Shown here piece by piece: positions 3,550 to 62,891 of a stretch of DNA of 64,000 nucleotides (positions within the stretch are counted from its first letter, which is position 1; each line of letters starts with the position of its first letter). The stretch is taken from the NCBI RefSeq assembly GCF_963921235.1, contig NC_086108.1:80044001-80108000 (forward strand). Reading direction: 5' to 3'. Made by a program: the position numbers and the translations under genes. Source of the DNA: Mobula hypostoma. Its lineage: Eukaryota. The notes below the pieces were generated by a model. That model worked only from the letters and a program-made list of their open reading frames with translations. It ran no database searches and was not told where the DNA came from.

Positions 3550-3640
3550 CTGATAAAGGGTTTCGGTCTGAAACGTCGACTGCTTATTCCTCTCCATAGG
3601 TGCTGCCTGGCTTGCTAAGATCCTCCAGCCTTTTGTGTAC
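3550..3640 (+). mobile_element. Penelope-like element terminus with degenerate hammerhead
   Basis: CTGATAAAGGGTTTCGGTCTGAAACGTCGACT (core CUGAUAA, mutated) followed by the family 3' sequence. Confidence 0.7.
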
Positions 3641-3651
3641 ACTGTACAGTA

Positions 3652-4330
3652 TATCGCAATGGAAACAGGCTTTTCGGCCCAACTCGTCTATGCTGACTAC
3701 GAAGCCTACTTAGCTAATTCAGTTTGCCCTCATTTGGCCCATATCCCAGTCTAAACCTCTCCTATCCATGTACTGCTGTTATTGTACCTGCCTCAACCAC
3801 TTCCTCTGGCAGCTTGTTTCAAACACACACTACACTCTACATTAAACATGTGTCCCTCAGGGTCTAAATCTCACCTTAAATAGACAGTTTTTAGTTCCCC
3901 TTCCATGGGAACAAAGACCATGCATGTTTACTTGACCTATGACTCACATGTTTTTGTTCACCATGATAACTTCACCCATCAATCTCTTACATTCTGCAGA
4001 ATGAAGTCATAGTTTGTTCGAGCTATCCCTATAACTCGCGTTCAAGTCCTGGCAGGATCCTTGTGAAACTTCTCTGGACTCTTTCCAGTTTAAGATTGTC
4101 TTTTCCTATAACAGGGTGACCAAAACTGTACACAGTACACCAAGCGCAGCACACCTATGTCTGTACAACTTCAATGTAATGTCACATCACAGTGCTCGGA
4201 TTAACAAAGGGCAATTTGCCCAAAGCCGCCGTCACCTCTCTGCCCAATTGGGATGCTGCTTCAGGCGAACTATGTGCTTGCTCTTCAAGGTTTCTGTGTT
4301 CCAAGACATTCCAAGGGATTGGCCGTTCAC
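3652..4330 (-). mobile_element. CR1-clade LINE 3' fragment
   Basis: Reverse complement of the CR1 RT C-terminus and 3' tail seen on + at 5900-6500. Confidence 0.75.
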
Positions 4331-6500
4331 TGTATTAATGGGAGATTTTAATTTCCTTGGTATTGACTGGACCATCCAGAGTGCTAAAGGCTTGAATGGG
4401 GTGGAATTTGTGAAATGTTTCCTGAGTCAATATATAGAGGGCCATACTGAGGAAGATTCGGTACTAGACCTCTTTTTGGAAAACCAGGCAGGGAAATTTA
4501 CAGAAGATGCAGTCAGGGAGCATTCTGGCCTTAGAAACCATAACCCTATTAGTTTTAAAATGGTGAAAGAAGAGGATAGGACAGGTCCACTGGTTAGGGT
4601 CCTAAACAGAAGCAGGGCTAATTTTGGTGAAATTAGACAGGATCTAGCAGAGGTCTATTGGGTGAACCTGTTTAAAAAGAAAGCAAGTGGGAAACTTTTG
4701 AGAGTGTGATATCAAGTGTTCAGGGGCAGCCTGTTCCTGTTATGGTGAAGGGTAAACCTGGCAAGTTTAGTGAACCTTGGAAATATCAAGGCTCTAGTCA
4801 AGAAAAAGAAAGAAGCATACATTGGGTTTAGGAGATAGGATCAAATGAATCCCTTGATGGGCAAAGAGAGGGTATGAGATGGATATGGCAGGTGAGGTTA
4901 AGGAAAATCCCACAATGTTCTGGAGCCATATTAGGAGTAAAAGGGCAGCTAGGAAGAGAATAAGTTCCTTAGAGAGCAGCAGTGCTGCCTGTGTCTTGAA
5001 CCACAGGAGATGGCTGGGATTTTTGATGAAACTTCTCTTTGGTATTTATTGAGTAGAACATCATGATTGCTGAAGACATGTTTGCACCGTCGTTAGCCAC
5101 TGGAGGAATTCCTGAAGACTGGGAGGTGGCTAATGCTATTTTGTTTAAGAAGGGTAGCAGGACAAACCAGGGAGCTACAACCTGGTCGGCCTGTATTAGT
5201 GGTGGGGAAGTTACTGGAGAGAGTTTGGATAGACAATCTAATTAGAAGGAGTCACCATAGCTTTGTGCATGGAAAGTTGTGCTTGAAAAATCTCCTAGAG
5301 GTTTTGGAAGTAATCAAAAATATAGATGGAGGGAGGGCAGTGGATATTGTCTATTTGGACCTGAACAAAGCCTTTAACAAGGTCTTGCATGGCAGGCCAG
5401 CTTGCAAGTTACATCCCATGGACTCCATAGGGAGATAGTTTGGTGGATTCAAAATTGGCTTGGAGGACGGAAGCAGAGAATGGTTGTGGAAGCTTGTTTC
5501 TTGGAATGGAGACCAGTGACGAGTGGTGTGCTGCAGGGGTCAATGTTGGAATTCCTGTTATTCGCTATTTATAGAAATAAGGTGGACCCAAATGCACAAG
5601 GCTTGATCAGTAAGTTTGTCGATGACATAAAATTAGTGATAGTGAAGAAGATTATTGTAGATTACAATGGGATCTTGAATAGTTAGGGAAGTGGGATGAG
5701 GATTGGCAAATGGATTTCAATATAGATAAGTGTGAGGTGATGCATATTGGAAAGTCAAAGGAGCATAGGAGTGGTAGAGTACTAGAGAGTTTAAAGAAAC
5801 AGAGGAACTCACCAATACAAATGCACAATTTGTTGAAAGTGGCATCACAGGTAGACAGAGAGGTGAAAATGGTGTGTAGTATGCTGGCCTTTATCAGTCA
5901 GAGCAATGAGTATCAGTGATGGGACATTAGGTTGCAGTTGTATAAGTTGTTTCTGAGGCTGTTTCTGGATGTGGTACAGTTCCGGTCACCCTATTATAGG
6001 AAAGATGTGATTAAACTGGAAAAAAGTGCCAAAAAGCTTTATGAGGATGTGTGCCAGGACCAGAGAGCCTGGTGTGAAGAGTTTGGCTGGGCTAGGTCTT
6101 TATTCCTTGGGGAATGAGCAGTGACTTTACAGAAATGTTTTAAGATTATGAGAGGCATAGGTAAGGTAGATGGTAACAGTCTTCTCTGCAGGATGGCAGT
6201 CCAAAACTAGGGGACAAAGGATTAAGGTGAGAGGGGAAATATTTAAAGTGGACCTGAATGGCAACTTCTGCACGCAGAGTGTGGTGAGACTATGGAATGA
6301 GCTGCGAGAGGAACTCGCTGAGTGAAGTGCAATGGTATAATTTTAGAAGCACTTGGCGAGGTACATGGAGAGGTGGAGCTTCGGAGATATGGGCTAAATG
6401 CCAAAAGTCGATTCTAGCTGGAATGGCATCATGTTCAGTATGGACTCACTGGACCGAAAGGCCTGTATCCATGCTATATTGCTCTTTGACCTTACGACTC
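4331..6500 (+). mobile_element. CR1-clade LINE, 5'-truncated and degenerate (APE remnant + RT + 3' tail)
   Basis: MGDFNFLGIDW, VLDLFL, PEDWEVAN, VDIVYLDLNKAFNKV, SGVLQGSML, KFVDD, FNIDKCEVMHIG; many frameshifts. Confidence 0.9.
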
Positions 6501-6599
6501 TAAATCCTACATCAGCAGGATTATTATAGAGTATTATTATGATAGCGGGGTTCAATTAGTGTATTCAGTGAGGTTTTATTTTTCCTTTTCTCGATTTAG

Positions 6600-6818
6600 A
6601 GTTTCAGCATGGTCATTGGCACTTCCAGCTCAAGGAGTGTGCGCCACCCATCTACACCCATGTGACTAATTAACCTAGTAACCCCTACTTCTTTGGAATG
6701 TGGGAGGAAACAGGAGTGCCCAGGGGAAACCCATGAGGTCATGGGGAGAACGTACAAACTCCTTACAGACAGTGGTGGAAGTGTGTTATACTAACCATTA
6801 TGCTGTCATGTTGCCCCC
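6600..6818 (-). mobile_element. tRNA-derived V-SINE (HE1-like)
   Basis: Reverse complement contains the V-domain GTTTGTACGTTCTCCCC...GGTTTCC...TTTCCTCCCACATTCCAAAG. Confidence 0.75.
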
Positions 6819-9679: not shown

Positions 9680-10370
9680 CACAGACTTGTACAGTGCAGA
9701 AATAGGCTCTTTCAGTCCTATTCGTCCATGCTGAGCAAGATGTCTGTCATGGCTGCATTAGGCCTGCGTTTATCTGCTCCTATCCTATCTGGCCAAACAT
9801 TTGGAAAGCATACTAATAGTGTTGCCTCCATCACCTCTGGCAGCTAATTCCAGATATTCACCACCCCCCAAAAACTCACTCTAAAGGTCTCTTCTAAATT
9901 TCTCCCCTCTTACTTTAAACGTGCCCTCTAGTTCTAGATTCCCCTGCCCTGGGAAAAAGATTCTTAACATATACTTGATCTACCCATTTCATAAACTTCC
10001 ATAAGGTCACCCATAAGCCTCCAGTAAGAAAAAAACCAGCCTTGCAAAATATGCAATATTATTTCATAACTACAGCCCTCCATTCCAGGCAACATACTGG
10101 TGAATTTTCTGGACTCTGTGTGGCTACCACATTCTTCCTGTAGTATGGCAACCAGAACTATGCACAGTGCTCATAAAATGCCGGAGGAACTCAGCAGGCC
10201 AGGCAACATCTGTGGAAAAGAGTACAGTCAACGTTTCGGACCGAGACTCTTCAGCATTTCCTCCAGCATTTTGTGCATGTTGCTTGGATTTCCAGCATCT
10301 GCAGATTTCCTCTTGTCTATGCGCAGTGCTCCAAGTTTGGTCTAACCAATGTTTTGTACAGCTACACATG
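9680..10370 (-). mobile_element. CR1 LINE 3' fragment, interrupted at 10173-10316
   Basis: CR1 tail and RT C-terminal homology to other copies in the window. Confidence 0.7.
10173..10316. mobile_element. Mini inverted Penelope-like terminus insertion with 15-bp TSD
   Basis: Minus-strand arm with partial hammerhead (GAAACGTTGACT) is joined to a plus-strand arm with tail. Flanked by CTATGCACAGTGCTC (10158-10172) and CTATGCGCAGTGCTC (10317-10331). Confidence 0.8.
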
Positions 10371-15199: not shown

Positions 15200-16030
15200 A
15201 AGAAAGTGTGCAGATGCTGGAAATCCAAAGCAACACACACAAAATGCTGGATGAACTCAGCTGGTCAGGCTGCATCCATGGAAGTGAACAGCTGGTCAAT
15301 GTTTCAGGCCGAGACCCCTTCTTCAGGACTGAGAAGGAAAGGGGAAGATGCCAGAATAAAAAGTTGGAGGGGGGGGGGGTTGAGGAGGCTAGCTGGAAGG
15401 TGATAGTTGCAGCCAGGTGGGTGGGAAAAGCCAAGGGCTGGAGAAGATAGGTCAGGAGTGGACCATAAGAGAACAGGAAGGATGAGACCCAGAGAGAATA
15501 GGAAGGTGAGAAGAGGTAAAAGGTCAGAGTGGGGAATAGAAGAGGGGGGGGGAATTTGTTTACCAAAACGAGAAATCAATATTCATGCCATCAGGTTGGA
15601 GGCTAAGCAGATGAAATATGAGGTGTTGCCCCTCCACCCTGAGGGTGGCTTCATCTTGGCACAAGAGGAGGCCATTAACTGAGATGTTGGAACGGGAATG
15701 GGAATTGGAATTAAAAGGATTGGTCACCGGGAAGTTCTGCTTGTTGCGGATGGTGTGGAGGTGCTCGACAAAGTGGTCCCCCAGTTTATGATGGGTCTCA
15801 CCAATGTAGAGGAGGCTGCATCAGTAGCACTGGACACAATAGACAACCCCAGAAGATTCGCAGGTGAAGTGTTGCCTCACTTGGAAGGTCTGTTTGGGGC
15901 CTGAATGGAGGTGAGGGGGGAGGTGTATGGGCAGGTGTAGCACTTGGGTGGCTTTCAGGGATAAATGCCAGGAGGGAGATTAATGAGGAGGGACAAATGG
16001 ACAAGGGAATCACAGAGCAAGTGATAACTG
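15200..16030 (-). mobile_element. Penelope-like element 3' part: GIY-YIG endonuclease remnant + pLTR with degenerate hammerhead (15294-15330)
   Basis: Minus frame TFQVRQHFTCESSGVVYCVQCY*CSLLYIGETHHKLG...LQPDGMNIDF. Hammerhead AGTC-CTGAAGA-AGGGGTCTCGGCCT-GAAACATT-GACC. Confidence 0.88.
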
Positions 16031-17240: not shown

Positions 17241-17244
17241 TCGG

Positions 17245-18770
17245 TAGTGTCGCAACCCAGAGTGACACACCCTACTCCAACTATGGCCTAACCAATGTTA
17301 TATAAAGTTTCAGTATAACTTTTCTGCTCCCAGATTCTATCCCTCAACTAAGAAGGCAAGTATACCCTATTCTTATCTACCTGTGAAGCCATTCTTTACT
17401 GTATATCTTGGTCCTTCAGTTCCTCCATACCTTCTCTAGAGTACCATTTGCCCTATCATTTTATGTGCATGTCCTGGCGTTATTAGACCATAACATATAA
17501 GAGCACAATTAGGCCATTTGGCCCATCAAGTCTTCTCTGCCATTCCATCATGGCTGATCCATTTCCCTCTCAGCCCCAATCTCCTGCCTTCTCCCCATAT
17601 CCCTTCATGCTCTGTCTAGTCAAGAATCTATCAACCTCTCCCTTAAATATACCTAATGACTTGGCCTCCACAGCTGCCTGTGACAAGTTTCACAGATTCA
17701 CCACTCTCTGGCTAAAAAAATTCTTCCTCGTCTCCGTTCTAAAAGGTCGCCCCTATATTCTGAGGCTGTCTCCTCTGATCTTTGACTCCCCCCACCATTG
17801 AAAATATCCTCTCCACATCCACAGTATTGAGTCCTTTCAACATTTGATAGGCTTCGATAAGGTCATCCCACATTCTTTGAATTCTGGTCAGTAGATGCCT
17901 AAAGCCATTAAATGCTCTTCATATGATAAGCCTTTCAATCCTGGAATCATTTTAATGAACCTCCTTTGAACCCTCTCCAATATCAGCACACCCTTACTTA
18001 GATAAGTGGCCCAAAACTGCTCACGACTCCAAATGAGGCCTCACCAGTGCTTTATAAAGCCTCAACATTACATCTTTGCTTTTATATTCTAGTCCTCTTG
18101 AAACGAATGCTAACATCACATTTGCCTTCTTCATGATGAAGGGTCTCGACCTGAAACGTCGACTGTTTACTCCTTTCAATACATTTTGTTATCTCAAAAA
18201 AAAATCATCACCTCACAAAACAATTCTGACTATCATTGATTACTCTTTGTTCCTCAGAATTTTTTTTAATCAAGTAAAATCCCTAATACTGATGTTATAA
18301 GCCTTATAACTACCTGGCCTATCCCTCCTTTCTTTTTTGATTAAGGTTAACACATTTGCTGTCCTTCAGTCATCCAACACCTATATCAAATATTTCAGAG
18401 AGATCAAACCTGTACAAATCTTCTAGGTGAAGTCTCACCATGGTCTTATTTCATTAAAGCATCTTGAGACTTATACTCAAACACTCTGCAATAAAGGCCA
18501 ACATGTTATTTACCTTCCCAACATTTGCATTTCCTGAATATTAGTTTTCTACACTAAGAAAATAGTGAATCTTTGGAATTACCTGTACAAAGCTATTGAG
18601 GCTTAGGTACTGGGCTTCTTCAAAACAGACATGTGAATAGGATATGGTGTCGGTACAGGAAAATAGCACTGATCAGCTATGATCTATGGATTCCATAGGC
18701 AGCTGAGAAGGACCAAATGGCTTAGCCCTGCTTCCTTTCCTTGTGTTCTTATTTCCCTGTAATTGGAGGA
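17245..18770 (-). mobile_element. Cluster of CR1 fragments (youngest 17487-18130 on minus; plus-strand tail 18560-18755)
   Basis: Close similarity to 29540-30200. Confidence 0.75.
18133..18180 (+). mobile_element. Penelope-like hammerhead fragment
   Basis: aTGATGAAGGGTCTCGACCTGAAACGTCGACTGTTTACTCC; 5'-truncated at C3. Confidence 0.7.
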
Positions 18771-18784
18771 GTAGGAAAACTACA

Positions 18785-19880: not shown

Positions 19881-19889
19881 TATGTCAAC

Positions 19890-22425: not shown

Positions 22426-22652
22426 CTGTGTGACAAATTGATGAATTAGCATATTATACTTATCTTATTGAAGAGGAATGAGTTCAGCAGTTAACTTCCA
22501 TTGACCAGAAGTATCTGCCAATCAGTGTCTTTAACTCTACTGACTAGTTTATACTTTGTGTAATGATCTACCTGTCTGACCAATAGCCTTACAAACGTAA
22601 TTGTAGATGTGAGTGTGCAGAGTCAGCTAATCAGCCAATAGTCTTGTTGGGA

Positions 22653-22923
22653 AACACACAAAATGCTTTAGGAACTCAGCAAGTCAGGTGGTATCTTTGG
22701 AGGGCAGTAGATAGTCGACGTTTTGAGCTGAGCCACTTCAATAAGACTGGAAAGAAAGGGGGAAGAAGCCAGAACCTCTTTCCTTTCTAATCCTAATGAA
22801 GGGTCTTGGTCCAGGACATTGACAATTTGTTCCTCTCCAAAGATGCTGCAGACCTGCTGAGTTTCTTCAGCATTTTTTGTGAGTTACTCAAGATTTCCAG
22901 CATCTGTAGGATCTCTTGTGTTT
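22653..22923. mobile_element. Old inverted pair of Penelope-like termini (two degenerate hammerheads)
   Basis: Minus arm 22653-22774 and plus arm 22775-22923 (CCTAATGAAGGGTCTTGGTCCAGGACATTGAC + tail). Confidence 0.7.
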
Positions 22924-26240: not shown

Positions 26241-26389
26241 GACTCTTCCTTCAGTTAGTCCTGACGAAGGGTCTCGGCCTGAAACGTCGACTGCGCCTCT
26301 TCCTATAGATGCTGCTTGGCCTGCTGCGTTCACCAGCAACTTTGATGTATGTTGCTTGAATTTCCAGCATCTGCAGAATTCCTGTTGTT
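26241..26389 (+). mobile_element. 149-bp Penelope-like terminus insertion with 9-bp TSD
   Basis: Near-identical to 62292-62439. TSD AACAATAAT at 26232-26240 and 26390-26398. Confidence 0.9.
26257..26292 (+). ncRNA. Minimal type-I hammerhead ribozyme (intact core)
   Basis: AGTC-CTGACGA-AGGgtctcggCCT-GAAAC-GTC-GACT; predicted cleavage after 26288. Confidence 0.8.
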
Positions 26390-33739: not shown

Positions 33740-34920
33740 CACTTTAATTTACAACAGGTCCACAGCAGATGTCATCTCATTGGCTCTTCACTCAAACCTG
33801 GAACATCTGGACAGCAAAATGCAGAATGCTCTTTGTCAATTATAGCTCGGCATTCAGTACTATTATCCCCTCAAAACTAATCAATGAACTTCAAACCCTC
33901 CCCACCACTGAGCACTTCCACACGGAGGACGTAAGTGCTACTGGATGATAGTCACTGGGGCAGGTTACCACGTTCTTCTTAGTCACCAGTATAGGTGAAG
34001 CTTGATTGAAGCAAGTGGTACCTGAGACTGTCAAAGTGAGAGGTTAAAGGTCTCAGTGAACACTGCAGCCAGTTGGTCAGCAGAGGTCTTTAGTACTTGG
34101 CCAGGTACCCTGTTTGGTCCAGATGCTTTCCGTAGGTTCACCTCCCTGAAGGTTGCCCGCACATCGGCCTCAGAGACTGAAATCACATTATCATCAGGGC
34201 TATGGGAGTTCGTGATGGTTTCTCCATGTTTTGATGTTCAAAGCGAGCACAAGATGCATTGAACTCATCTGGAAGTGAAGTCCTGTTGTCACCTATGTTG
34301 CTTGATGTAACTTTATACGGGGTGATAGCATTCAAGCTCTGCCAAAACTGTCGAGCATCCTTTGTTGATTGAAGTTTAGTCCAGAATTTTCACTTTGCCC
34401 GTGAGCAGGCTTTCCAGTGATCCTACCTGGTCCTCCTGTAACTTTCTTGTCATTGAACTTGAGTATCTCCGACCTATCCCTCAGCAGTTAGCGGATCTCA
34501 TGGTTCATCATGGGCTGACTCGGAATGGTTTTGTGGGGCTCACTTGTCTACAACTGTTTTAACTAACTCTCCCCACCACCACTACTTTATCTATAGTTTA
34601 CTCCTGGCCTGCTGAGTTCCTCCAGCATTTTGTGTGTGTTGCTTTGGATCTCCAGCATCTGTAGATTTTCTTGTGTTTGTGATACTGCTTTATCATTTCC
34701 TGTCACAGTCACCTTATGTACAAATACTTTTGTATCTAGAGTCACCTTATGTACATACAATCAATCGATGTACAGTATTTAAGCTAATCTTAAGTATTTA
34801 TATTTATTGTGTTCTTTATGCTTATTTTTATGCTGCATCAAAATAACAATAATTTTGTTCTCCTTTATACTGTGTACTGACCAATGACAATATATAATCT
34901 TGAAACTTGAATACTGAATC
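33740..34920. mobile_element. Rearranged Rex1-Babar fragments (plus 33740-33920, minus 33925-34560, plus tail to 34920) with a Penelope tail at 34600-34680
   Basis: Homology to 46100-47000 in both orientations. Confidence 0.65.
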
Positions 34921-38794: not shown

Positions 38795-39245
38795 CAAAGA
38801 AAAAACAGCAGATGTTAGAAATCTAAAGTGTAGAAAAGAAAGCAGAAAATGCTGGAAATGCCCTGCAGATCAGGTTGCATCAGTGCGAAGACAAACAGCG
38901 TTTCAGTTCACAGACCCTTTGTCAGAGCTCAACAGATTGTTTTATCACTGCAGAGATAAAATAGGAGCAGAATTAGGCCATTCAGCCCACCAAGTCTGTT
39001 CCACCGTTTGATCATGGCTTTATTATCTCTCTTAACTGCATTCTCCTGCCTTCTCCCTGTAACCTTACTAATCCAGAACTTATTGACGTCTGCTTTAAAT
39101 ATACCCAATGACTTGGCCTCTACAGCTATCTGTAGTATGATTAAGATTTAAAATTGACAGAAAACTTTATAGAAGTACTCATCAACTGTGAAGAAGGAAA
39201 CAGAATGGATGTTTCAAATTGATGACCTTTCATCAGTATTGGGAG
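38795..39245 (-). mobile_element. Two older hammerhead-bearing Penelope-like termini flanking a CR1 tail (38955-39140)
   Basis: Minus CTGACAAAGGGTCTGTGAACTGAAACGC (38898-38925) and CTGATGAAAGGTCATCAATTTGAAACATC (39208-39236). Confidence 0.55.
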
Positions 39246-41010: not shown

Positions 41011-41629
41011 ATCCACCTGCTTTTGAATCACAAATGTAAAGAACAATACAAAAATCATCTGCATTTATCCCTGCTTTTGACCGAATGATGGAACGAAGGT
41101 TGGAGATGGCGCAGCTGTAAATATTTGTGCTTAGGAGATTGCCCCGAGGAACTCCTACAGTGACAGCCTGGAGCCGGGATTTTTGAACCCTGACAATCAG
41201 AATGATTTTCCTTCTAGGTATAATTCCAACCATTAGATACTCTTGATATCTAAAGACTTCAGTTCTACCAGCACTCCTTGATGCTGTATTGACCTGATGG
41301 TCTGTTCTGCTGGTGAGGCAGAATGCAGCCAGGGATTGTGACATGAGAGGCTGACAAGATGTCCATAAGGATGAGTAAGCCAGGATTTTGCTGGACTCCT
41401 CTTGGGACAGACCTCTCAGTTTAGATACCAATCCCTAGATACTTCATTGCAAGGTCGATTGGACTAGGAGTGACTTTCCTGTGTCCAAGTTTGGTGCTTA
41501 GCTCAATAATTAATGGGCTGCCCAGCTTTATTCTTTCTCTGTTTCAATGTAGCAAAGTACAACTGAGTGGATTGCTAGGCCAATTCAGAAAACATGTGTG
41601 AATCAATCACACGTGAAAAATTGAGAAGA

Positions 41630-42080
41630 CCCTGCAGATGCTGCAAAGCTTAAATAAAAACAGAAAATGATGGAAACTCTCAAAGTGGGTTAGGCAGCAT
41701 TTGTGGAAAGAGAAATGATTAGAGTGTCAAGTCAGAGACCCTTGGTCAGACTTCTGCTGCATTTGGGCAAATCTGGAGTTGCCTTCTGATTATGCTCTTC
41801 TTCATGAGAGAAATATTGTTTCTGTTTCACTATCAAAGCCTTTCAACATTTCAATTCCATTTTTTGGCCATAAACACAAGAGATTCTGCAGATGCTGGAA
41901 ATCCAGAGCAACGCACTCAAGTTGCTAAAGGAACTCAGCAAGTCAGGCAGTATCTATGGAGAGGAATAAACTGTCAACAGGTGAGGTGTAAGTTAGGTGG
42001 GTGTGGGAGGGAGGGATGAAATAAGAAACTGGGTGAAGAAATTAAAGATTGAAGAAGAAGGAATCTGATAGGAAAGAACA
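41630..42080 (-). mobile_element. Two Penelope-like termini (41630-41752 old, degenerate hammerhead; 41871-42080 hammerhead deleted)
   Basis: CTGCAGATGCTGGAAATCC...GAACTCAGCAAGTCAGGCAG family signature. Confidence 0.65.
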
Positions 42081-42624: not shown

Positions 42625-43000
42625 CTGCTACTCTCTCAACCCTTCTGTTCTCCTCTCCTGCCTGACACTTTTCTCTGCTTCCCCTTCTTCCCTTTATTCC
42701 ATGGTCCACTGTTCTCTCTTATTAGATTCCACCTTTTTCATTCCTTTATCTCTTCCATCTATCACCTTACAGCTTCTTACATCATCTCTCCTCCCCCATC
42801 CACCCACCTATCCCTTCACCTGATCTCACCTATTACCTGCCAGCTTGTACTCCTTCCCTTTCCCCCACCTTTTTTATTTTAGCTTCTGCCCCCTTCCTTT
42901 CCAGTCCTGATGATGGTTCTCAGCCTGAAACGTCAACTGTTTATTCCCCTCCATAGATGCTGCCTGACCTGCTGGATTCCTTCAGCATTTATTTGTGTTA
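42625..43000 (+). mobile_element. Penelope-like pLTR with hammerhead (42903-42938)
   Basis: Pyrimidine-rich pLTR, then AGTC-CTGATGA-TGGTTCTCAGCCT-GAAACGTC-AACT. Core intact, stems mismatched. Confidence 0.8.
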
Positions 43001-43086
43001 CCTTTACTCCCACCTGGTTTCTACCTGGAAGGCAGCTCACAATCCAATCACCTGACTCTTCATTCTGACTTCATTCATCTATTATA

Positions 43087-45519: not shown

Positions 45520-47810
45520 GCAGTTTACATACCACCAGTGGCCGACTATAATCAAGCACTTAAGATACTGCACGATGCCAAATCCAAACAAGAATCTTGA
45601 TGAATTTTAAATCATAGTTGGGGACTTCAACCAGGCTTGCTTGAAGAAAACCCTGCCTAATTACCATCAGCCTAAAACTGAAGAAGGCTCTCGACCTGAA
45701 ACAGCAACTGTTTATTCACTTGCATAGATGCTGTCTGATCTGCTGAGTTCCTCCAGCATTTTGTGCGTGTTGCTTTGGATTTCCAGTATGAGCAGAATTT
45801 CTCATGTTTAGCGTATAATCTGTGACACCAAAGGTCCCAACACACTAGGCCACTGTTATACTAAGGTATGGAATGCCATACCAGCCCGCACTTCGGTAAA
45901 TCTGATCACTTGGCTGTCCTTCTACCTGCATACAGGCAGAGGCTAAAGAGCAACACTCCAGAGATTAGGACAACAAAGGGGTGGTCATGGGAGGTAGAGG
46001 AGTGGCTACAGATTGTTTCGAGTCGGTGGACTGGGCTGTGTTCAAGGGCTCATCCGTGGATCTGAATGGATACTCCACAGTTGTTACGGATTTTATTAAA
46101 GCTGTTGTAGATGAGTGTGTCCCCACGTAATCATTCAGAGTCTACCCCAACCAGATGTCCTGGATGAACCATGAGATCCACAGTCTGCTGAGGGCCAGAT
46201 CACAGGCTTTCAACTCTGTGACCAGGAAAGTTACAAGAGGCCCAGGAACAATCTCCGGAAAGCCATCTTATGGGTGAAGTGGCAATTCTGGACTAAACTT
46301 GAAATCAATGAAGGATGGTTTACAGTTGTGCAGCTTTGAATGCAATCACCTCTTATAAAGTAAAAACAAGCAACATAGGCAACATGGGGCTTCACTTCCA
46401 GATGAGCTCAATGTCTTCTATGCTCACTTTTACTGTCAAAACATGAAGGAACCATCATGAACTTCCTTAGCCCTTGATGATCTAGTGATTTCAGTCTCTG
46501 AAGCCAATGTGCGAGCAGCCTTCAAGAAGGCAAACCCATGAAAAGCATCCGACCCAGATGGGGTACCCATCTAAGTACTAAAGACCTGTGCTGATCAACT
46601 GGCTGGAGTGTTCGCTCTGACCTTTAACCCCTCCCCCCTCGGTTTGGCCGTCTGAGATACCCACCTACTTCAAGCAGATTTCACTTAGATCGGTGCCTAA
46701 GAAAAACATGGTGACCTGCCTCAATGACTATCATCCAGTAGCACTTACATCCACAGTGATAACATTTTGAGTGACTGATGTTGAAACATATCAACTCCCG
46801 CCTGAGAAATGACTTGACTCCACTCCAATCTGCCTACTGAGCAACAGGCCCACAGCAGATGTCCTCTCATTTGACGCTTCACTCAACCCTGGAACATCTG
46901 GACAGCAAAGATACAAACATCAGGATGGTCTTTTTTGACTAGAGCTCAGCATTCAATAGCATCATCCCCTCAAAAGTAATCAATAGACTTCAAGTCCTTG
47001 GCCTCGATGCCTCCTTGTGCAATTGGATCCTTGATTTCCTCACTTGTAGACCCCAGTCAGTTTGGAACGGCAACAGCAACTCCGCCACAATCTCTATCAG
47101 CACAGATGCACCACAAGGCAGCTTGCGCATGTGGTTAGCCCCTTGCTCTACTCACTTTTACACTTACGACTATGTGGCTAAGCACAGCTCCAATGCCATA
47201 TTCAAATTTGCTAATGACATCCCTGTCATAGGCTGAATCAAAGGTGTTGATGAAGCAGCATATGTGTAGGAGGGAGACTGAAAATCTGGCTGAGTGGTGC
47301 ATTAACAACAACCTCTTACTCAATGTCAGCAAGACCAAGGAGCTCATTATTGACTTCAGGACGAGGATCCATGAGTCAGTCCTCATTGGAGGATCAGACG
47401 TGGAGAGGTTCAGCAACTTTAATTTCTTCAGTGTTAGAATTTTGGAGAACCTGTCCTGGGCCCAGAATTTAAGTGCAATTATGAAGGAAGTACAGCAGTG
47501 CCTTTATTTCCTTAGGAGTTTGTGAAGATTCAGCTTGACATTTAAAACTTTGACAAACTTTTATAGATGTGAGGTGGAGAGAATATTGACTGGTTGCATC
47601 ACGGAAAACACCGATGCCCTTGGATGGAGAATCCTACAAAAAGTAGTGGATGCAGCCCACCATTGAGTTCATCTACACAGAGCACCTTTGCAGGAATGCA
47701 GCATCCATCATCAAGGATGCCCACCACCCATGCCATGTTCTCTTTTCTGCTGCTGCCTCAGGAGGAAGGTGCAAGAGCCTCAGGACCCACAGTACCAGGT
47801 TCAGGAACAG
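45520..47810 (+). mobile_element. Rex1-Babar LINE, degenerate (APE end + RT)
   Basis: [66 protein letters not shown]. Confidence 0.88.
45678..45810 (+). mobile_element. Penelope-like terminus inserted in Rex1 (degenerate hammerhead)
   Basis: CTGAAGAAGGCTCTCGACCTGAAACAGCAACTG + tail. Confidence 0.75.
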
Positions 47811-51489: not shown

Positions 51490-52025
51490 TACGCTTGGTG
51501 GCCACACCTGTACACCTGCTTGTTAATGCAATCATCAGCTAATCATGTGGCAGTAATTCAATGTATAAAAGCATGCAGACATGGTCAGACTAAACATCAG
51601 AGTGGGCAAAAGATGTGATCTAAGTGAATTTGATTGTGGAATGACTGTTGGAACCAGGTGGGGTGGTTTGAGTATCTCAGAAACTGATGATCTCCTGAGG
51701 TTTTCACGTACAAGTTTCTCGAGTTTACAGAGAATGGTTCAAAAAACAAAAAAAGCATCCAGTGAGTGGTGGTTCTGTTTACAAAAACACTTCTTAATGA
51801 GAGAGGTCTGAGGAGAATGACCAGACTGGTTCGAGCTGACAGGAAGGAGATAGTAACTCAAATAATCATGTGTTACATTAGCAGAGTGCAGAAGAGCATC
51901 TCTGAATGCACAACATGTAAAACCTTGAAGTGGATGGGTACAGCAGCAAAAGACCATAAGCCATACACTCAGTGGCCACTTTATTAGGTGCAGCAGGTAC
52001 TTAATAAAGTGATTCACTGAGTGTA
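51490..52025 (+). mobile_element. Tc1-family non-autonomous transposon
   Basis: ADRKEIVTQII...QKSISECTTCKTLKWMG. Terminal TIR-TIR hairpin at 51964-52025 ending in TA. Confidence 0.85.
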
Positions 52026-54004
52026 CCTTATTGATGTCTACAGTTAAATGTCTAAATTAATCTCATGCCTCTTGAGTTAGTGGCCGACTGTGGTCTATAA
52101 CACATATGCAGTGTCTACCCCAGGGAGCCATACAGGTTTTTGACTCCACTATCCAGGAGGTCTCCTAAATCATCAGTATCAGGATTTGAAACACTTATCG
52201 GTATCAGATTAAAACTGCCCCACGAAGATCAGTCTTCTAAGCAAATACATGAGTATTAAGTTGTTATTCCTTTTTTTTTGCACTACTTATTTTTGTAATT
52301 CATGGTAATTTTTGTCTTTGCACTGTACTGCTGCTACAAAATAACAAATATCAACAACATTATATATGTCAGTGATAAGCTTGATTCTGAGATGTAATAT
52401 ATAATTAAAATCTAAATAAGTGATAGGGTAAATCGTACTTTGTCACTGGCCTCAAAGAAAGCTCTCACAAGTATCTAGTGACCTGTGTAAGGACTTCCCA
52501 TATTCTGTATTGGTTACTTCCACCCTGGTGATCCCTGGCATCCAGTAACAGTGATATGATCCAGATGGGTGAGCTACCAGCCACACTAAGGAATTCTTAC
52601 AGACAGCAAACTGGAAAATAAGAGGCAACATTTTCAAAAGATGATTAAAATAACGAAATATCACAGACACACTTGCAAAAATAAAACTGATTATTCATCT
52701 GAGGGAATTACAATCCATACATAAATTTAGTTTTGGAGGGCCCAATAATTCCTTCGGCAGTACTGCTTAGTTGGGCAATAATGTTTAGTAAATTATTTAA
52801 ACCATTACACTTTTTAAGAGTGTATGTAGCAATTTCAATGTTTTTCACATCATATGAAGCTTGCAGGTCCCTGGTTTTCATTACTTCACTGATTTAATAA
52901 GATTACTTTCAATGAGAAAAGCTGCAAAATGTCTTAAAGAGGAGCAAAAATCTCTGGCACTAATTTCTGAATTTCCCCATTTAACTTCACACATGCCTAC
53001 TCCATGGTTACGGCAGCCTTGCTGTCAAAGTCTAAGCCACTTAGTTTCGAAAGAGAGCTACTTGCAATAAATTATCCCCCAGAACAGCACAACATCAAGT
53101 TACCTCACCTCTCTGTTCTCCTGATACTGTAAAGTTATTTCCCCAACCAAAACAATATGCTCAGGTTATCAGTTTAATTCTTTAACAGCATCTTCAAAGA
53201 AAACTGCAAAAACACATCCAGAGCAGTCTCAGTCTTTGACCATCAATTGGAAAGGAGGAGCAGGAATACCTCAATCGGCCCTTCAAGCATTTCTGCCATT
53301 TAATACAATACTGGCTGATTCTTTATCGCAACACCATTATTAATCGTTCTTCCCCTATGCATTTTCTTAAATGTATTCAGCAACTTAGCCTCTACGGCCT
53401 TCTAGCTCTGAGCAAATAAATTTCACCAAGCAGTCATATTGTAAATTCCCCCACTAGCTAGCTGCACCATCTTCTCTGCATCCAGCCCTTTGAGCACTGT
53501 CAGAATCTCCTAAGTCTCAGTGAGATCTCCTTTCTTCTTTCAAAACTCCAGAGCTAATCTTATTGACAAAAGAAATAAGGCTCTGTCATTACCCCAGCAT
53601 TCTTTTCAGTTTTTTTAGTGTAACATTGTACCTTATCTCCAAAAAACCTCTTGCAGGAGTAGAGCTAATTTCCATAACTAATTGAAAGCTGTTTAAGTGA
53701 CAGAATCATTACTCCAGAATCAAGGCCACCCATATCTCAGTGGTCAAGTATCAGACTGCAGAGAACATTTACATTTATACATGTTCATGAAGCTTGTTGG
53801 CTTAATCCCAGCAGGGTGTGAAGATGTGCCTTAAATTTAATATGTAGAAGACAAAGGCCATCTACCAACCTGTACCTGCTGCACCATATTGACCCATGAC
53901 TATAAAAGTTCATGTTGAGATGATGGAAAACATGGATTATTTCCCATATCTTGGGAACCACCTCTCAACAAAGACAACATGAATGAGTTAACACACCACC
54001 ACCT

Positions 54005-56360
54005 TCAGAATCAGATTCAGAAATCAAGCTTATTATCACTGACATATGTTGTGAAATTTGTTCTTTTGCAGCAGTACTGCTCAATACATAAAAATTATAA
54101 ATTCCAGAAAGAATATGTAATAAATAAATACATTGTGGATAAAAAATGAGCAAAATATTGAGGTTGGGTTCATGGGTTCATGGAGTGTTCAGAAATCTGA
54201 TGGCAGAGAGAAAGAAGTTGTTCCTAAAACAGTGAGTGTGGGTCTTCAGGCTCCGATACCTCCTTAATGATGGTAATAATGAGAAAAGGGCATGTCCTGG
54301 ATGGTGAGGATGTTTCTTGGTGGATGCTACTTTCTTGAGGCATTGTCTATTAAAGATGTCTTCCATGATGGGGGTCTTGTGCCCATGATGAAGCTGGCTG
54401 AGTTTACGGTCCCTACAGCTTTTTCCAATCCTGTGCATTGGCATCTCCATGTTAGACGGTGATGCAACCAGTCAGGAATGCTCTGTATGGTACATCCGTA
54501 GAACTCTGCCCAAGTCTTCGGTCTTACCAAATCTTCCCAAATTCCTTATGAAATACAGCCAATGACATGCCTTCGTAACTGTGTCAGTATGTTGGGCCCA
54601 GGATAGATCTTCAGAGATGTTGACAGCCAAAAGCTTGAAACTACAGGTGTCCCCCGCTTTTTGAACGTTCACTTTACAAAGCCTCACTGTTATGAAAGAC
54701 CTACATTAGTACCCTGTTTTCGCTTTCAGAAGGTGTTTTCACTGTTATGAAGAAAGGCAGCGTGTGATAAAAAATCAGCGCGCGATAAAAGGCAGCGCGT
54801 GCCCCGAGCAGCCGCTCTGCCCCGGATTCGGAACGGCATTGCTTTAACACGTTGCATTGAGCAGCCGTTAGCAAGATGAGTTCTAAGGTGTCGGAAAAGC
54901 CTGAAAGAGTAAGGGTGTTGCACTTAGCGTAAAACTAGACATAATTAAGCGTTTCAATCGTGGTGAACGAAGTAAGGACAAAGTGAGTTTGGCTTGTGGA
55001 AGTTGACGAAGATGATGTTGAAGAGGTTTTGGCATCCCATGACCAAGAACTGATAGATGAAGAGCTGACGCAATTGGAAGAGGAAAGGATAACAATTGAA
55101 ACCGAATGCAACCGAATGCAGAAAGTGAAGCAACTGCGTGAGATTTTCACTGCAATGATAAAATAGGACTTTAATTTTGAAAGGGTACGTAGGTTTAGGG
55201 GATATTTGCAGGATGGTTTGAGTGCTTACAAACAACTGTATGATAGAAAAATGCACGAGGCTCAGCAGTCAAGCAAGCCTTCCATATCAGCCACAGCAGA
55301 TGACGAACCTCAACCTTCGACATCGAGGCGGGCAGTCATAGGAGAAGATGAGCTGCCTGCCCTGATCGATGATGAGATGACACCCCCGTGTCCCACCACC
55401 CCAACACCCAGGCCGCGGACAGATACTGTACCGATTCACGGAGAATGCAGCAGTAGCCGGGAGGCACACAGCACATCTTTAAGAAAAAAGCCGAAATAAA
55501 CATGCTAATTAATTAGGTGCTGCCTAGCATGTAATTGTCGGCCCAGATCAGAGGCGATGCAATCGGCAATCGCCTTTGATCTGTGCCGACATTTACGTGC
55601 CGGGCAGCACCTCATTAATTAGCATGTTTATTTCAGCTTTTTTTCTTAACGATGTGCTGTGTGCCTCCTGGCTACCCCTGCGTGCTTTGCAGCAATGTAT
55701 CGGGTCGGTGGCCCATAGGGTGGGGTCCACTGCACCACCCAGCCTGCGACGACTCAGTCTAACACACCATCATCAGTGTGCTCGGCGCTGTTTTCCCAAT
55801 TCTGGTAAGTGATACTACACTGTACATACATTATTTCTACTTTATATAGGCTGTGTATTTCTATGTGTTATCTGGTAGATTTGGCAGCTTCATAGTTTAA
55901 AGGTTACTGGAGAGCGCGTTTATGCCAACAGCGCTTGCGTGAGATTTTCTGCCGAGAGCGCTTGCATGAGATTTTCACTACGGAGATCTGCGCAGGCAAT
56001 CATTGTAGAGAAGTATTTCTACTTTATATAGGCTGTGTATTTATCATATCATTCCTGCTTTTACTACATGTTACTGTTATTTTAGGATTTATGTGTTATT
56101 TGGCATGATTTGGTAGGATATTTTTGGGTCTGCGAACACTCACAAAATTTTCCCATATAAATAAATGGTAATTGCTTCTTCGCTTTACGACATTTCGGCT
56201 TACAAACTATTTCATAGGAACGCTCTACCTTCGGATGGCAGGGGAAACCTGTACTCACATTTTCCAATGCTGACCTGTTGATGAGAAATGCTGTGTATTA
56301 CCCTGATTTTTCCTTCCCGAGTCCACAATCAAATCCATGGTCTTACTGACAGTAAGGTTG
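54005..56360 (-). mobile_element. Rex1-Babar 3' fragment split by a Tigger element
   Basis: ISEDLSWAQH, HHPGHALFSLLPS, FRNNFF..AIRFLN; continues at 56254. Confidence 0.8.
54644..56251 (+). mobile_element. Tigger/pogo DNA transposon, internally deleted
   Basis: TA-CAGGTGTCCCC...GGGGAAACCTG-TA. CENP-B-like N-terminus (KGVALSVKLDIIKRFNRGER) fused to acidic C-terminus (EVDEDDVEEVLASHDQELIDEEL); DDE domain absent. Confidence 0.88.
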
Positions 56361-56720: not shown

Positions 56721-57499
56721 ACAGCCATCAGGATTCAATATTGAATTCAACAATAGCATGAATTTATTTTTCTGAAAGAACTGATCAGTCCCACTACAAG
56801 CAGAAGGATCACACCACCTCACGAACCATTCACCTTCCAGCCCATCAACCCTCTATGACAGAGTCTGCAGCTCCTTTGACACTTCAGAAGCCACAGAATT
56901 GAGTGAAAGTCAAAAGCCTTCTAAAAATTCAAATACACTACATAATTTTACTGCCACTCTGAATTATCTGCCTGTGGTTTTCTGCATTGTTCCAACAAGG
57001 TTCAATATAAGCTTGAGGAATAGTACTTAATCATTTGTAAAGCCTTGCGGACTCAATATTGAATTCAACATCATTACTTACCCCTTCAAAAAGAACTGAC
57101 CAGTTCTGCTGCAAGATTATCCACCTGCAATATTAATCCAGGCTTTATCTCTCCAAAGTCAGAGATTTCCCATATTCTCAGTTTGGTTCCTGGGCTCAGT
57201 AACAGCCCTGACCTGCACTTCACAGCTTTTATGGACCACTTTCTTTGTTTACGTGCTCTCTCACACTCTTTATCTCTAAGATGTCGGATCATTTGGATAT
57301 CCCTGGCCTCAGTTTAGCAGAGATTTTTTTTTTGTCTTACTCATCTCTCCCTAGTTCTCTTGGTAGCTTATAATTTGTTTTCTCTTTTTCCCAGTCTTCA
57401 CCCAGAAATGTTAACTCTGGGTCTTTTCACTGATGCCGGTTGACTTACTGATCTCCTCCAACACTTGTTTTTTTTTATTATTAATGCACCACATCCACT

Positions 57500-58665: not shown

Positions 58666-60455
58666 TTGAAAGTATCTTTTTTCATACACTAGTTCTGTAG
58701 ATTGCTGTGACATAAATCTTTAATGGATTTCCATTCTCCTGCTGCATTATATCTAAATAACAGGAATAGTTTGCTTTAAAATGTGCCTGATAATTTTATT
58801 TTGTTTCTCCCCAAATGTGCCTTTATTAGTGTATGAGAGTTGGCGTCAGTGGCCCTTTAAGTATGAGTTTACAAAGGAAGTTTATTTATGAAACAGAATG
58901 TTCGAGACAAATTGGTAGAGAGCAGCATGAACTGCAGGAGTCAGCAGTTAGGCTTGACTGCTCTACGTGGGTGGGCTGCTGGTTCAACCACCCTGATTTC
59001 CCTGTGCATACTGAATGACCCTGACTTATTAATCTCCATGTCTTTAAGACTTGTCTATCTGGTGCAGTTCCTGCCCTAGCCCCCTCCTCCCAACACACAG
59101 CTCCAGATCCAGAAGCCCACTCTCACCTCCCAAACCAGTTTCATTACTTTTTATTTGTATCACTTTTGGCTTCACTGACCACCAGGATAACACAGAAACA
59201 CACTGTGTTCATTCTTTCACATTTCTCTGTGTGGATTCCAACAGTGGAGTCACATCAAAACAAATACATCCAAACAGAGAAGGAAATTAAAGGGAAATTG
59301 TAGTTACTAAAATCAGTCACTGTCACAGTGTTTATTGAATGGAATAAATTGATGCACAGCCCCTTTCAGTTATAATATTTTGTTTATATTTCATGACAAT
59401 TAATTTGCTGGTTAAAGGCAGATTGATCAAAGGTAATTATGTGGAACTCCTTATCGCAGTGATGCCGAGGCCTGAATTTTCCTCAGCGGTGAAGTCTGCA
59501 TTGGGTTTTCTGGTTGCTGCTTTAACCATGGCATATTGTTTTGTTCTGGTATTATTCCAGCAGTTTAGAGTGAGCTCCCAAAACTGAGTCCCATTGAGAA
59601 CCCAATCAGTCAAATCAATTTTAGATACAGATCCTTGAATGTTGAACTTTGCACTTGTTCTCCCACTGATGGCTAGATTCTGAAATGTACTGTTAAACCA
59701 GATGACCCCAGTGCTACGTTAACGGTTTCCTTGGGGCTGCAGAGACACATCATGGCTCATTGCTCTATTACTCATGAGTACTAGACTGGTTGATAAAGAT
59801 GTCAGCATGTTGCCACAATAGCACAATCGGCTTCCTTTTTTCAGTCCCCCTCTCCCATACATACACTGAAAATTTCATTTATCAATTCAACTTATCTTAC
59901 TTCTTATTTTGGTATCCCTTGCAAATGGATAAGCTATCCCTAGGAGTTGTAAAACGTAGAACAGTACAGCACAGTACAGGCCCTTCAGCCCATGATGTTG
60001 TGTCAACCTTTTAACCTACTCCAGGATCAATCTCACCTTTCCCTCTTACATATCCTTTCTTTTCATCCATGTGCCTATCCACCAGCCTCCTAAATGTCCT
60101 TAATGTATCCATCTCTACCACCAACTGTGGCAGCACATTCCATGCACCTACCAACCTCTGTGTTAAAAAAAACCTACCTGGCACCACCCCCCCCCCCAAA
60201 ACTGCTGCCCAATCACCTTAAAATAATGCCCACTGGCATTAACTGTCAACTCTACCAATGCCTCATATTATACATATGAATCAGGTCACCTGTCATCATC
60301 TCTTACTCCAAAGAGAAAAGCCTAGCTCACTCAACCTCTCCTCATAAGACACATTCTCTAATCCAGGCAAAGTTCTGATAAATCTCCTCAGCACTCTCTC
60401 TGAAGTTTCTACACTCTTATAATGAGGCAACAGAACCAAACAACGTACTCTAAGT

Positions 60456-60709
60456 CCTTCCTAGCGTGTCGCACCAGACAGCCAGCCATTCTTGTCTGGT
60501 GCGTAGTGTCAGGATTGGCCTCCTTTCGGATTAACCGGGTCACGATATGAACGTTCCAGACTCAACCCTTTTTTTCTGAGGCCGAGTGGCTAGCTCGACG
60601 CTCAACCCGGCATGGATGGAAAGCGTGCTTGGGGGGTGGCCTGACTTGGATTCGAACTCAGGAGCCTTCGCTCCGAAGTCCGGCGCTGATCCCACTGCGC
60701 CACCAGCCG
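60456..60709 (-). mobile_element. Young tRNA-derived SINE with 11-bp TSD
   Basis: A box TGGCGCAGTGG, B box GTTCGAATCC, GACTTCGGA anticodon-loop-like segment. TSD GTACTCTAAGT at 60445-60455 and 60710-60720. Confidence 0.88.
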
Positions 60710-61138
60710 GTACTCTAAGTGTGGTCTAACCATGGCTTTATAGAGCTGCAACATTTGCTCATAGCTCTTGAACTCAGTCTCCTAATAAAGGCCAACACAC
60801 CGTACACGTTCTCTACAACCCTCATCAACTTGTGTACCAACTTTGAAGGATAAATGGTAGTGAACTCCAAGATCTGTCTGTTCCTCCACCCTGCCATTAA
60901 CCCTGTATCAATTTCAACCTTCCAAGTGCATAACTTTAGATTTTTCCAGTTTGAACTCCATCTGCCACTTCTCAGCCCAGCTCCGATTCCTATCAATTCC
61001 TTAACCTACAACAACTTTCTACACTATCCGTAACATCACCAACCATTGTGCCATCTGAAAACTTACAACCCACCTTCCCACTTCCTCAAAGTTGCTGGTG
61101 AACGCAGCAGGCCAAGCAGCATCTATAGGAAGAGGTAC

Positions 61139-61174
61139 AGTCGACGTTTCAGGCCGAGACCCTTCGTCAGGACT
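61139..61174 (-). ncRNA. Minimal type-I hammerhead ribozyme (intact core)
   Basis: Exact reverse complement of 62307-62342. Confidence 0.8.
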
Positions 61175-62306
61175 AACTGAAGGAAGAGTGAGTAAGGGAT
61201 TTGAAAGCTGGAGGGGGAGGGGGAGATGCAAAATGATAGGAGAAGACAGGAGGGGGAGGGATGGAGCCGAGAGCTGGACAGGTGATAGGCAGAAGGGGAT
61301 ACGAGAGGATCATGGGACAGGAGGTCCGGGAAGAAAGACGGGGGGGGGTGACCCAGAGGATGGGCAAGAGGTATATTCAGAGGGACAGAGGGAGAAAAAG
61401 GAGAGCGAGAGAAAGAATGTGTGCATTAAAAAGAGTAACAGATGGGGTACGAGGGGGAGGTGGGGCCTAGCGGAAGTTAGAGAAGTCAATGTTCATGCCA
61501 TCAGGTTGGAGGCTACCCAGACGGAATATAAGGTGTTGTTCCTCCAACCTGAGTGTGGCTTCATCTTTACAGTAGAGGAGGCCGTGGATAGACATGTCAG
61601 AATGGGAATGGGATGTGGAATTAAAATGTGTGGCCACTGGGAGATCCTGCTTTCTCTGGCGGACAGAGCGTAGATGTTCAGCAAAGCGGTCTCCCAGTCT
61701 GCGTCGGGTCTCACCAATATATAAAAGGCCACGTCCGGTGCTCCCGATGTGGCCTTTTATATATTGGTGAGACCCGACGCAGACTGGGAGACCGCTTTGC
61801 TGAACATCTACGCTCTGTCCGCCAGAGAAAGCAGGATCTCCCAGTGGCCACACATTTTAATTCCACATCCCATTCCCATTCTGACATGTCTATCCACGGC
61901 CTCCTCTACTGTAAAGATGAAGCCACACTCAGGTTGGAGGAACAACACCTTATATTCTGTCTGGGTAGCCTCCAACCTGATGGCATGAACATTGACTTCT
62001 CTAACTTCCGCTAGGCCCCACCTCCCCCTCGTACCCCATCTGTTACTCTTTTTAATGCACACATTCTTTCTCTCGCTCTCCTTTTTCTCCCTCTGTCCCT
62101 CTGAATATACCTCTTGCCCATCCTCTGGGTCACCCCCCCCCGTCTTTCTTCCCGGACCTCCTGTCCCATGATCCTCTCGTATCCCCTTCTGCCTATCACC
62201 TGTCCAGCTCTCGGCTCCATCCCTCCCCCTCCTGTCTTCTCCTATCATTTTGCATCTCCCCCTCCCCCTCCAGCTTTCAAATCCCTTACTCACTCTTCCT
62301 TCAGTT

Positions 62307-62342
62307 AGTCCTGACGAAGGGTCTCGGCCTGAAACGTCGACT
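62307..62342 (+). ncRNA. Minimal type-I hammerhead ribozyme (intact core)
   Basis: AGTC-CTGACGA-AGGgtctcggCCT-GAAAC-GTC-GACT; predicted cleavage after 62338. Confidence 0.8.
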
Positions 62343-62891
62343 GTACCTCTTCCTATAGATGCTGCTTGGCCTGCTGCGTTCACCAGCAACTTTGATGTAT
62401 GTTGCTTGAATTTCCAGCATCTGCAGAATTCCTGTTGTTTCCCACTTCCTCATTGTCATTTATAAAAATCATTAGGAGCAAGGGTACCTGAACAAATCCC
62501 TGCAGAACACCTTTGGTCACTGACCTCTAGGCAGAAAAGTCTCCATCAATTATTGCACAAGCCACTTTTAGAATCCACGCAGCCATGCCTCTTGACTTTC
62601 TGAATTAACCTGCTACGGGGGACCTTGTTGAACGCCTTACTAAAATCCATACCCACATCCACTGCTCTACCTTCATCAATATGTTTTATGACTTCTTCAA
62701 AGAATTCAATCAGGCTCATGAGGCATGACCTACCCCTCACAAAGCAATGTTAACTATCCCTAATTAGACTTGCTTCTCCAAATGTTCGTAAAACCTGTCT
62801 CTAAGAATCCTCTTCAGAAGTTTGCCCATCAATGATGTAAGACTCACTAGTCTATAATTTCCAGGATTATCCCTATTACCTTTCTTAAACT

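Follow-up and report, generated by a model that had tools for sequence, protein, structure and literature searches.

The DNA analysed here is a stretch of 64,000 nucleotides of the Mobula hypostoma genome (contig NC_086108.1, positions 80,044,001 to 80,108,000), called the window below, in which a short hammerhead-like motif recurs. The repeats bearing this motif are very probably 5′-truncated copies of one autonomous Penelope-like element, likely made by its own reverse transcriptase (RT) reading through an uncut hammerhead. The unit of the element is 3,515 bp long and the window repeats correspond to its 3′ end. A first, sequence-only reading had listed the motif at 14 positions and counted about a dozen copies of several ages. 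With an iterated profile built from natural copies, the window gave 19 matches at E≤1e-3; all 14 positions are among them and are copies from one family. An earlier profile round, run on 264 kb, gave 53 matches and none on the reversed sequence. The 14 positions represent 12 insertions, with 22713/22792 and 61139/62307 as head-to-head pairs; pieces at 34588, 41979, 57398, 10258 (plus strand) and a weak one at 35598 had been missed, most of them without a hammerhead. The range of ages, from young through middle-aged to older and very old, was also correctly seen. The recurrence of the motif has to be qualified, as it is fully intact (14/14 core letters, 4/4 in stem I and 4/4 in stem II) only at 26257, 61139 and 62307. 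At 42903 the core is full with 3/4 pairs in each stem; at 10226 direct reading finds all core letters, with a shortened stem II and no 5′ arm of stem I; the other nine are decayed, with 1–5 core changes each. Likewise, the GIY-YIG remnants said to precede the motifs are real, and they sit upstream of just three of the 14 (15294, 61139 and 62307). The remnant at 15569-16017 shows 59–69% identity to a natural long copy, Cys linker included, and those at 61470-61730 and 61733-62011 show 99–100%.

An autonomous master encoding RT and GIY-YIG, as anticipated in the first reading, was found. The young copy of the window has 42 scored matches at 97–100% identity among 510 candidates, and L014 is a head-to-tail partial tandem with a 3,515-bp unit. 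Among 16 tandem-junction loci examined at full length, L229 and L234 each have a first pseudo-long terminal repeat (pLTR), within which an intact open reading frame (ORF) of 1,042 amino acids begins, followed by another pLTR; their hammerheads are separated by about 3.5 kb. In L221 and L232 the open frames exceed 1,000 codons. The first in-frame ATG lies 61 nt past the predicted cut, and the start of the ORF overlaps the terminus. The protein comprises an RT with YIDD, a C-x4-C-x2-C linker (CKRNKCYTC) and, at the C terminus, a GIY-YIG domain with CCHH (C-x2-C, H, H). The Pfam matches of the long copy L013, RVT_1 (E 2.7e-5) and GIY-YIG (E 1e-3), are both under the curated cut-off. Homologues bear the same RT and GIY-YIG domains, the closest named relatives being shark and ray proteins with 67–95% identity. 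A single ORF with RT and C-terminal GIY-YIG, and partial tandems forming pLTRs, characterize the endonuclease-bearing (EN+) Penelope-like elements; the motif in the pLTRs of L229 and L234 matches a minimal type I hammerhead, in line with the initial proposal.

The CX2-5CxxC linker and the CCHH endonuclease follow the Neptune layout; RT, Cys linker and CCHH GIY-YIG are described for Neptune and Nematis (Craig et al. 2021, PMC8557442), and the linker is thus not confined to Neptune. Because vertebrates yielded only Neptune and Poseidon in a 2026 preprint, the element is likely of Neptune type, a clade assigned here by motifs and not by an RT tree; none of the matched homologues is named to a clade. 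With the Neptune-clade elements of Craig et al. it shares the single ORF with RT, linker and C-terminal GIY-YIG/CCHH, partial tandems, inverted 5′ copies and a 30–40-bp tail. Unlike them, it shows no evident microsatellite targeting in the flanks seen, for which no formal test was made. Element class, ribozyme variant and insertion anatomy are all already published, and the finding is ordinary in kind. We found no description of this family for cartilaginous fishes in the literature; the Repbase and Dfam libraries, outside the comparison, may list it, as may the tables of a retrozyme preprint (10.64898/2026.07.22.740005) whose sample included one chondrichthyan genome. One Penelope copy (L012:1-1533, plus strand) directly follows a 511-codon open frame with a Cys-rich end, probably another transposon.

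It is the scale that is unusual: this Penelope-like family is extremely and recently amplified, and the early statement that it is very abundant was well founded. Exact hammerhead cores number 102,839 genome-wide versus 1,243 for the reversed pattern (an 83-fold excess), exact matches with stems 45,986, exact young-terminus 31-mers 16,094, exact RT 31-mers 2,593, and head-to-tail tandem junctions 504 (≤1 mismatch). In 23 evenly spaced 10-kb stretches (230 kb), 41 terminus matches were found, which extrapolates to about 620,000 termini (445,000–840,000). With one terminus per 3.4 kb versus one per 5.6 kb in this sample, the window is somewhat denser, not special, and typical of the genome. For comparison, the much larger genome of the axolotl contains 126,247 canonical hammerheads; the count here is no record but the density is higher.

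Ends of the short copies and state of the template

Both ends were mapped for the first 100 young matches on contig C1, numbered from the predicted cut. The 3′ ends lie at +102 or about 27–48 nt short of it (about 65–74 nt past the cut); 17 of 18 inverted pairs combine one full arm with an arm 27–48 nt shorter, and an inverted partner lies upstream in 52 of the 100 copies. Such a 3′ tail is described in PMC11167929 and PMC8557442, the former tracing it to two internal start sites. As to the 5′ ends, 12 fall at 0 to −24, 43 at −25 to −51, 8 at −52 to −199 and 37 further up. The corresponding stop rates per nt for the first three zones are 0.005, 0.025 and 0.0013, i.e. a 19-fold pile-up at −25 to −51 relative to the zone beyond, which holds for solo copies too (14 of 35 at risk). 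Smaller pile-ups occur in the same sample at about −330, near the stop codon, and about −820, inside the ORF. Of 42 unpartnered copies, 15 are flanked by target duplications of 7–15 bp. Starts at the cut site account for only about 1% of the young copies. The few starts at the cut and the pile-up 25–51 nt upstream of it therefore mean that most of the template is uncut there; the short termini arose by truncation and are not a short interspersed element (SINE). At 5 segregating sites, 48 short and 37 long young copies show no allele difference (p 0.29–1.0). The suggestion that the short copies behave like a ribozyme-containing SINE thus fails on shared alleles, scattered 5′ ends and the insertion signatures of the element itself, namely target duplications, two kinds of 3′ end and inverted partners.

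Several observations weigh against this conclusion. Alleles were compared within one young subfamily on a single contig. Of the 16,094 termini, 83 are preceded at the cut site by two foreign bases, a count that correction raises to about 148. This compares with about 21 starts at +4, about 70 at −3 (fold-backs excluded) and about 256 per position in the pile-up; starts at the cut exceed those at +4 sevenfold and those at −3 about twofold, and a small cleaved fraction of the template may exist. Of 11 solo copies whose target duplication is resolved, only 2 have an extra cap-like G. At 30 loci starting at the cut, the preceding sequence is foreign DNA in 11 cases and an inverted arm in 15, several of them joined through stem I microhomology.

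Some further observations are neutral here. Eleven perfect fold-back insertions are centred on the GTCGAC palindrome, which is the predicted cut site (e.g. G000:C1:69869164-69869221). Read-through into the unit start (2/23 vs 4/17, p 0.37) did not discriminate the idea of an upstream-pLTR source for short copies and a downstream-pLTR source for long ones. RNA contigs of four runs have joints at the hammerhead 5′ edge that are not on GT/AG; contigs show no RNA ends, and they were used neither for nor against any reading.

The published anole element offers a model for the first steps. The protein would bind the element RNA near the pLTR–ORF junction, the endonuclease would nick the target, and reverse transcription would initiate internally, at either of two sites separated by about 35 nt. 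From the ends mapped here, synthesis would usually stop just past the hammerhead, leaving termini of 90–155 bp, either at the RNA 5′ end, with an initiator-like (Inr-like) TCACT lying near −47, or at a hairpin predicted from −47 to −17. We place the stop there because the upstream edge of the pile-up coincides with both. An Inr-like motif has been noted in a rotifer pLTR (PMC3846280). Inverted pairs would arise from second priming or fold-back and mini-tandems from a jump back onto the ORF start, while cleavage by the hammerhead would be weak and would take place in dimers or be aided by protein. PAc, the Poseidon element of Anolis carolinensis (Frangieh et al. 2024, PMC11167929), is alike in that two reverse-transcription start sites within the ORF start set the tail, uncut RNA is the main template and the ORF start overlaps the terminus; hammerhead mutants left its insertion unchanged. 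It differs in that the element here has the Cys linker of Neptune/Nematis, and the 5′ pile-up and the counts of mini-tandem junctions are not in the parts of that paper available to us.

The hammerhead motif and the alternative explanations

At 62307 the motif consists of stem I AGUC/GACU, CUGACGA, a bulged A, a 4-bp stem II closed by G-U, and GAAAC-GUC, with no loop III. Intact copies match the minimal type I form of Cervera and de la Pena (2014, PMC4209133) in core, single bulged base, stem II, GAAAC-GUC and the palindrome ACGU without loop; CUGANGA, GAAA and NUH, stems I and II and a palindromic, loopless stem III are all present. The palindrome having no loop, stem III can therefore form only between two molecules. 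The minimal hammerhead ribozymes (min-HHRs) described in that paper for metazoan Penelope-like pLTRs, among them fish Xena, Poseidon and Neptune elements, are also type I without loop III, with palindromic 15.2-16.2, one unpaired base before stem II and a 4-bp stem I, and occur mostly as single dispersed copies of truncated elements. Unlike them, the motif here has a short stem II (4 bp), closed by G-U in the young master. About 100,000 exact cores here compare with about 4,000 in coelacanth and 9,000 in Xenopus in the same source, with differing descriptors, and the supplement file searched has no shark or skate entry. An Rfam scan of the window at E≤1, a check put forward with the initial reading, returned no hammerhead, its matches being inverted repeats; this is unsurprising because the motif has no stem III.

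For conservation within the family, the commonest letter per column was compared across three age classes. It changes in 0 of 14 core, 1 of 16 stem (G-C to G-U) and 10 of 85 flank columns (p 0.04–0.16); this is weak evidence for a hammerhead and belongs with the points held above against our reading. Old copies retain 83% of non-CpG core letters versus 82% of flank letters, which counts against function in the copies. The stem II closing pair (G10.1-C11.1) is G-U in 21 of 30 cores and G-C in 8, G-U being fixed in young masters. Within the family only one-sided stem changes were seen, and stem II length variation is confined to the loop. It is across families that the stems covary. In the first 30 cores with longer spacers, chance matches included, stem II pairing is 0.76 versus 0.42±0.04 when shuffled. 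Six other hammerhead sets of the genome have an unchanged core with unrelated yet paired stems, and stem I differs between families (AGUC/GACU versus UGCA/UGCA). Two other families show weak GIY-YIG traces upstream (E 3e-4 and 0.15). This cross-family comparison points to a hammerhead and is stronger evidence than that from within the family. The loci L187-L214 on contig C1 represent at least 5 other low-copy minimal-hammerhead families with a 6–8-bp stem II and a different stem I, the weak GIY-YIG traces lying upstream of L199 and L211. By RNA folding prediction, when the leader from −47 is present, the hairpin −47 to −17 leaves stems I and II with a probability of 0.00; for an RNA that begins at −36 to −32 the value increases to 0.1–0.4. 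Masters are likely the only copies that keep a functional hammerhead, its cleavage itself being predicted; cleavage is not needed to make short copies.

That the motif is a dead relic or chance look-alike, without ribozyme function even in masters, appears very unlikely to us. It would account for the missing Rfam match, the G-U closing pair of the young master where G-C is usual and the neutral decay of old copies; it leaves unexplained the excess over the reversed control, the invariant core with different, paired stems in other families, and a stem II that varies in length only in the loop. Conservation of the core across families would also suit the proposal of PMC4209133 that the hammerhead cuts tandem transcripts to unit length and that re-ligated circles are the main template, copied seamlessly over the cut site. 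A ligated cut leaves no scar, so read-through is compatible with it, and among 40 copies, short or long, whose 3′ end is complete, 6 run on into the unit start. However, a 3.5-kb circle gives no reason for half of the copies to stop 25–51 nt past the junction, stems I and II are not predicted to form with sequence from −47, and no RNA ends were found at the cut site in anole (PMC11167929). We regard this proposal as unlikely.

Most improbable is a separate non-autonomous SINE or retrozyme, bearing the ribozyme, transcribed from short copies and mobilised in trans, although derivatives of this kind are proposed in a 2026 preprint (10.64898/2026.07.22.740005). It is favoured by the 55 of 100 young copies that start within 54 nt of the cut site, by the sharp upstream edge of the pile-up near −48, and by the occurrence of mini-tandems, one junction of which recurs. 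But short copies share alleles with long ones, their 5′ ends spread across 30 nt with no fixed 5′ end, no distinct head or poly(A) tail was seen in the 100 young copies, and, of the mini junctions, one that was tested occurs at a single locus and another at just two. Truncation of the autonomous element on a mostly uncut template thus stays our preferred explanation.

Mini-tandems and a candidate back-spliced circle

We examined 97 tandem-junction loci, the first listed of the 504 matches: 70 run on into the ORF, 23 are mini-tandems and 4 end otherwise. Mini-tandems join the first 34–330 nt of the unit to a downstream part; 12 of 23 rejoin at −25 to −56 and none within 3 nt of the cut, which is consistent with RT jumping from the stop zone to the beginning of the ORF. 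One junction is of another type. At L218 (G000:C2:157815900-157818300, 4 junctions) a GT donor is joined to a pyrimidine-CAG acceptor at −34, without microhomology. The only other locus in the genome search with this exact junction is L240 (G000:C50:58410983-58414010, 2 junctions). At both, the tandem unit is 310 nt long and bears a hammerhead; the donor lies 175 nt into the unit of the element. The two loci are independent insertions: they lie on different contigs, have distinct target duplications and start sites, and disagree at four haplotype positions. Two L218 units share a change, and this array may have doubled later. The chance of two identical splice-site junctions is 1–2% by a rough estimate, made after the first case was seen. 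These features suggest, most simply, a back-spliced 310-nt circle; an identical junction would result if two pLTRs were joined by linear splicing and strand jumps followed. From four upstream donor-like sites, no linear splicing junction was found among the loci examined, and no genome-wide search was made. The intron of D. virilis Penelope ends at the helix I 5′ end (PMC4209133), 2 nt from the acceptor position here.

A tentative scenario, which we find plausible while leaning slightly towards doubt, is that retrozyme-like arrays are born without the ribozyme. A leader acceptor 2 nt before helix I would be used in back-splicing to a 310-nt circle, which RT would have rolled into the genome at least twice; most other mini-arrays would come from RT jumps at the leader 5′ stop zone, and the acceptor and upstream hairpin may switch the hammerhead off as long as the leader is unspliced. 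The literature searched, as far as its accessible parts go, contained no mention of Penelope circles formed by back-splicing. Another junction (unit 151 to −90, 4-nt microhomology) is shared by the mini-tandems L310 and L316 (C5, 159.0 and 227.5 Mb). It reflects a recurrent jump or a small non-autonomous master; that such masters may exist speaks against truncation as the whole account. The 343-bp mini-unit of L031 was rejected as a spreading family, being at one locus only.

Non-LTR retrozymes (PMC7229834; 10.64898/2026.07.22.740005) are similar in forming mini-tandems of 170–430 bp, pLTR-derived, with one hammerhead per unit. In contrast to these, as far as the sources at hand describe them, mini-arrays here are rare, mostly unique and of 2–4 units, and their junctions avoid the cut site, one type lying on splice signals. 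Tandem units each with a hammerhead, which define retrozymes, are seen only in these rare mini-arrays and in none of the window copies. CircRNA-derived pseudogenes (PMC4897178) are likewise genomic copies retaining a back-splice junction; those described there come from host genes, while here it is the retroelement's own leader, in tandem and with a hammerhead.

Window copies, neighbouring repeats and significance

The copies and their parts are listed in the table; no tandem exists among them, all being monomers. In the young insertion, the plus arm contains the GIY-YIG end, the 3′ UTR (untranslated region), the hammerhead and the full 3′ end, and the inverted arm is 45 nt shorter at its 3′ end. 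Its target duplication is TTCCCACTTCCTCA (61075-61088 and 62439-62452), each end overlapping the element by 2–3 nt. That this 653-bp inverted repeat is an assembly artefact was ruled out by the target duplication, 3 differences between the arms and many parallels. The young solo terminus has a 9-bp target duplication AACAATAAT (26232-26240 and 26390-26398) and a single extra G at 26241.

Table. Features of the Penelope-like family in the window
Feature	Positions	Strand	Remarks
Young insertion, two arms	61086..62440	both	plus arm 61733-62440, inverted arm 61738-61086
Intact minimal hammerhead	62307..62342	+	predicted cut after 62338
Intact minimal hammerhead, inverted arm	61139..61174	-	predicted cut after 61143
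GIY-YIG endonuclease, C-terminal 93 codons	61733..62011	+	99% identity to natural long copy L013
Young solo terminus, hammerhead intact at 26257-26292	26242..26389	+	starts 47 nt upstream of cut site
Older 5′-truncated copy: Cys-linker/GIY-YIG remnant (15569-16017), 3′ UTR, hammerhead	15200..16030	-	C3 at 15326, core 13/14
Old terminus, start at hammerhead 5′ edge	3546..3640	+	core 13/14
Old fold-back pair	10169..10316	both	core letters on minus arm 10258-10169; no hammerhead on plus arm 10258-10316
Fragment, truncated at both ends	18131..18183	+	core 13/14
Old head-to-head pair	22652..22923	both	22753-22652 minus, core 10/14; 22782-22923 plus, core 9/14
Terminus without hammerhead	34588..34678	+	profile match, absent from first list
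Very old terminus, 14-nt stem II spacer	38802..38930	-	core 11/14
Very old terminus, 14-nt spacer	39180..39242	-	core 13/14
Very old terminus	41627..41750	-	core 10/14
Terminus starting about at cut site, no hammerhead core	41872..41979	-	absent from first list
Middle-aged terminus, pyrimidine-rich 3′ UTR upstream	42896..43002	+	core 14/14, stems 3/4 and 3/4
Middle-aged terminus, stem I 5′ arm missing	45675..45809	+	core 12/14
Decayed terminus	57398..57465	+	absent from first list

The young insertion splits an older LINE (long interspersed element), whose pieces (60066-61085 and 62441-63698) are inverted matches to the RT region at 31747-33105. LINE remnants with matches to a GDSL-lipase ORF1, endonuclease and RT lie at 27757-33270, 21475-22464 and 48481-49092. 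Three copies of an element with terminal inverted repeats of about 30 bp are found at 18781-19280, 23536-24103 and 51640-52028; we take it to be Tc1/mariner-like. Rfam matches to mir-9256 at 19214 and 51961 are hairpins of the ends of this element. A 75-nt inverted repeat, 89% complementary, at 55484-55643 is outside the Penelope-like family. No host exon was evident in 31 long open frames scanned in the window.

The approximately 46,000 intact hammerhead motifs and 16,000 exact young termini form a large natural record of reverse-transcription products. This record marks a sharp stop just upstream of the ribozyme motif. It bears on the open question of the role of the hammerhead for Penelope elements, with cleavage placed off the main path. 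If the scenario for the mini-arrays is true, jumps and back-splicing would be a route from pseudo-LTRs to retrozyme-like arrays.

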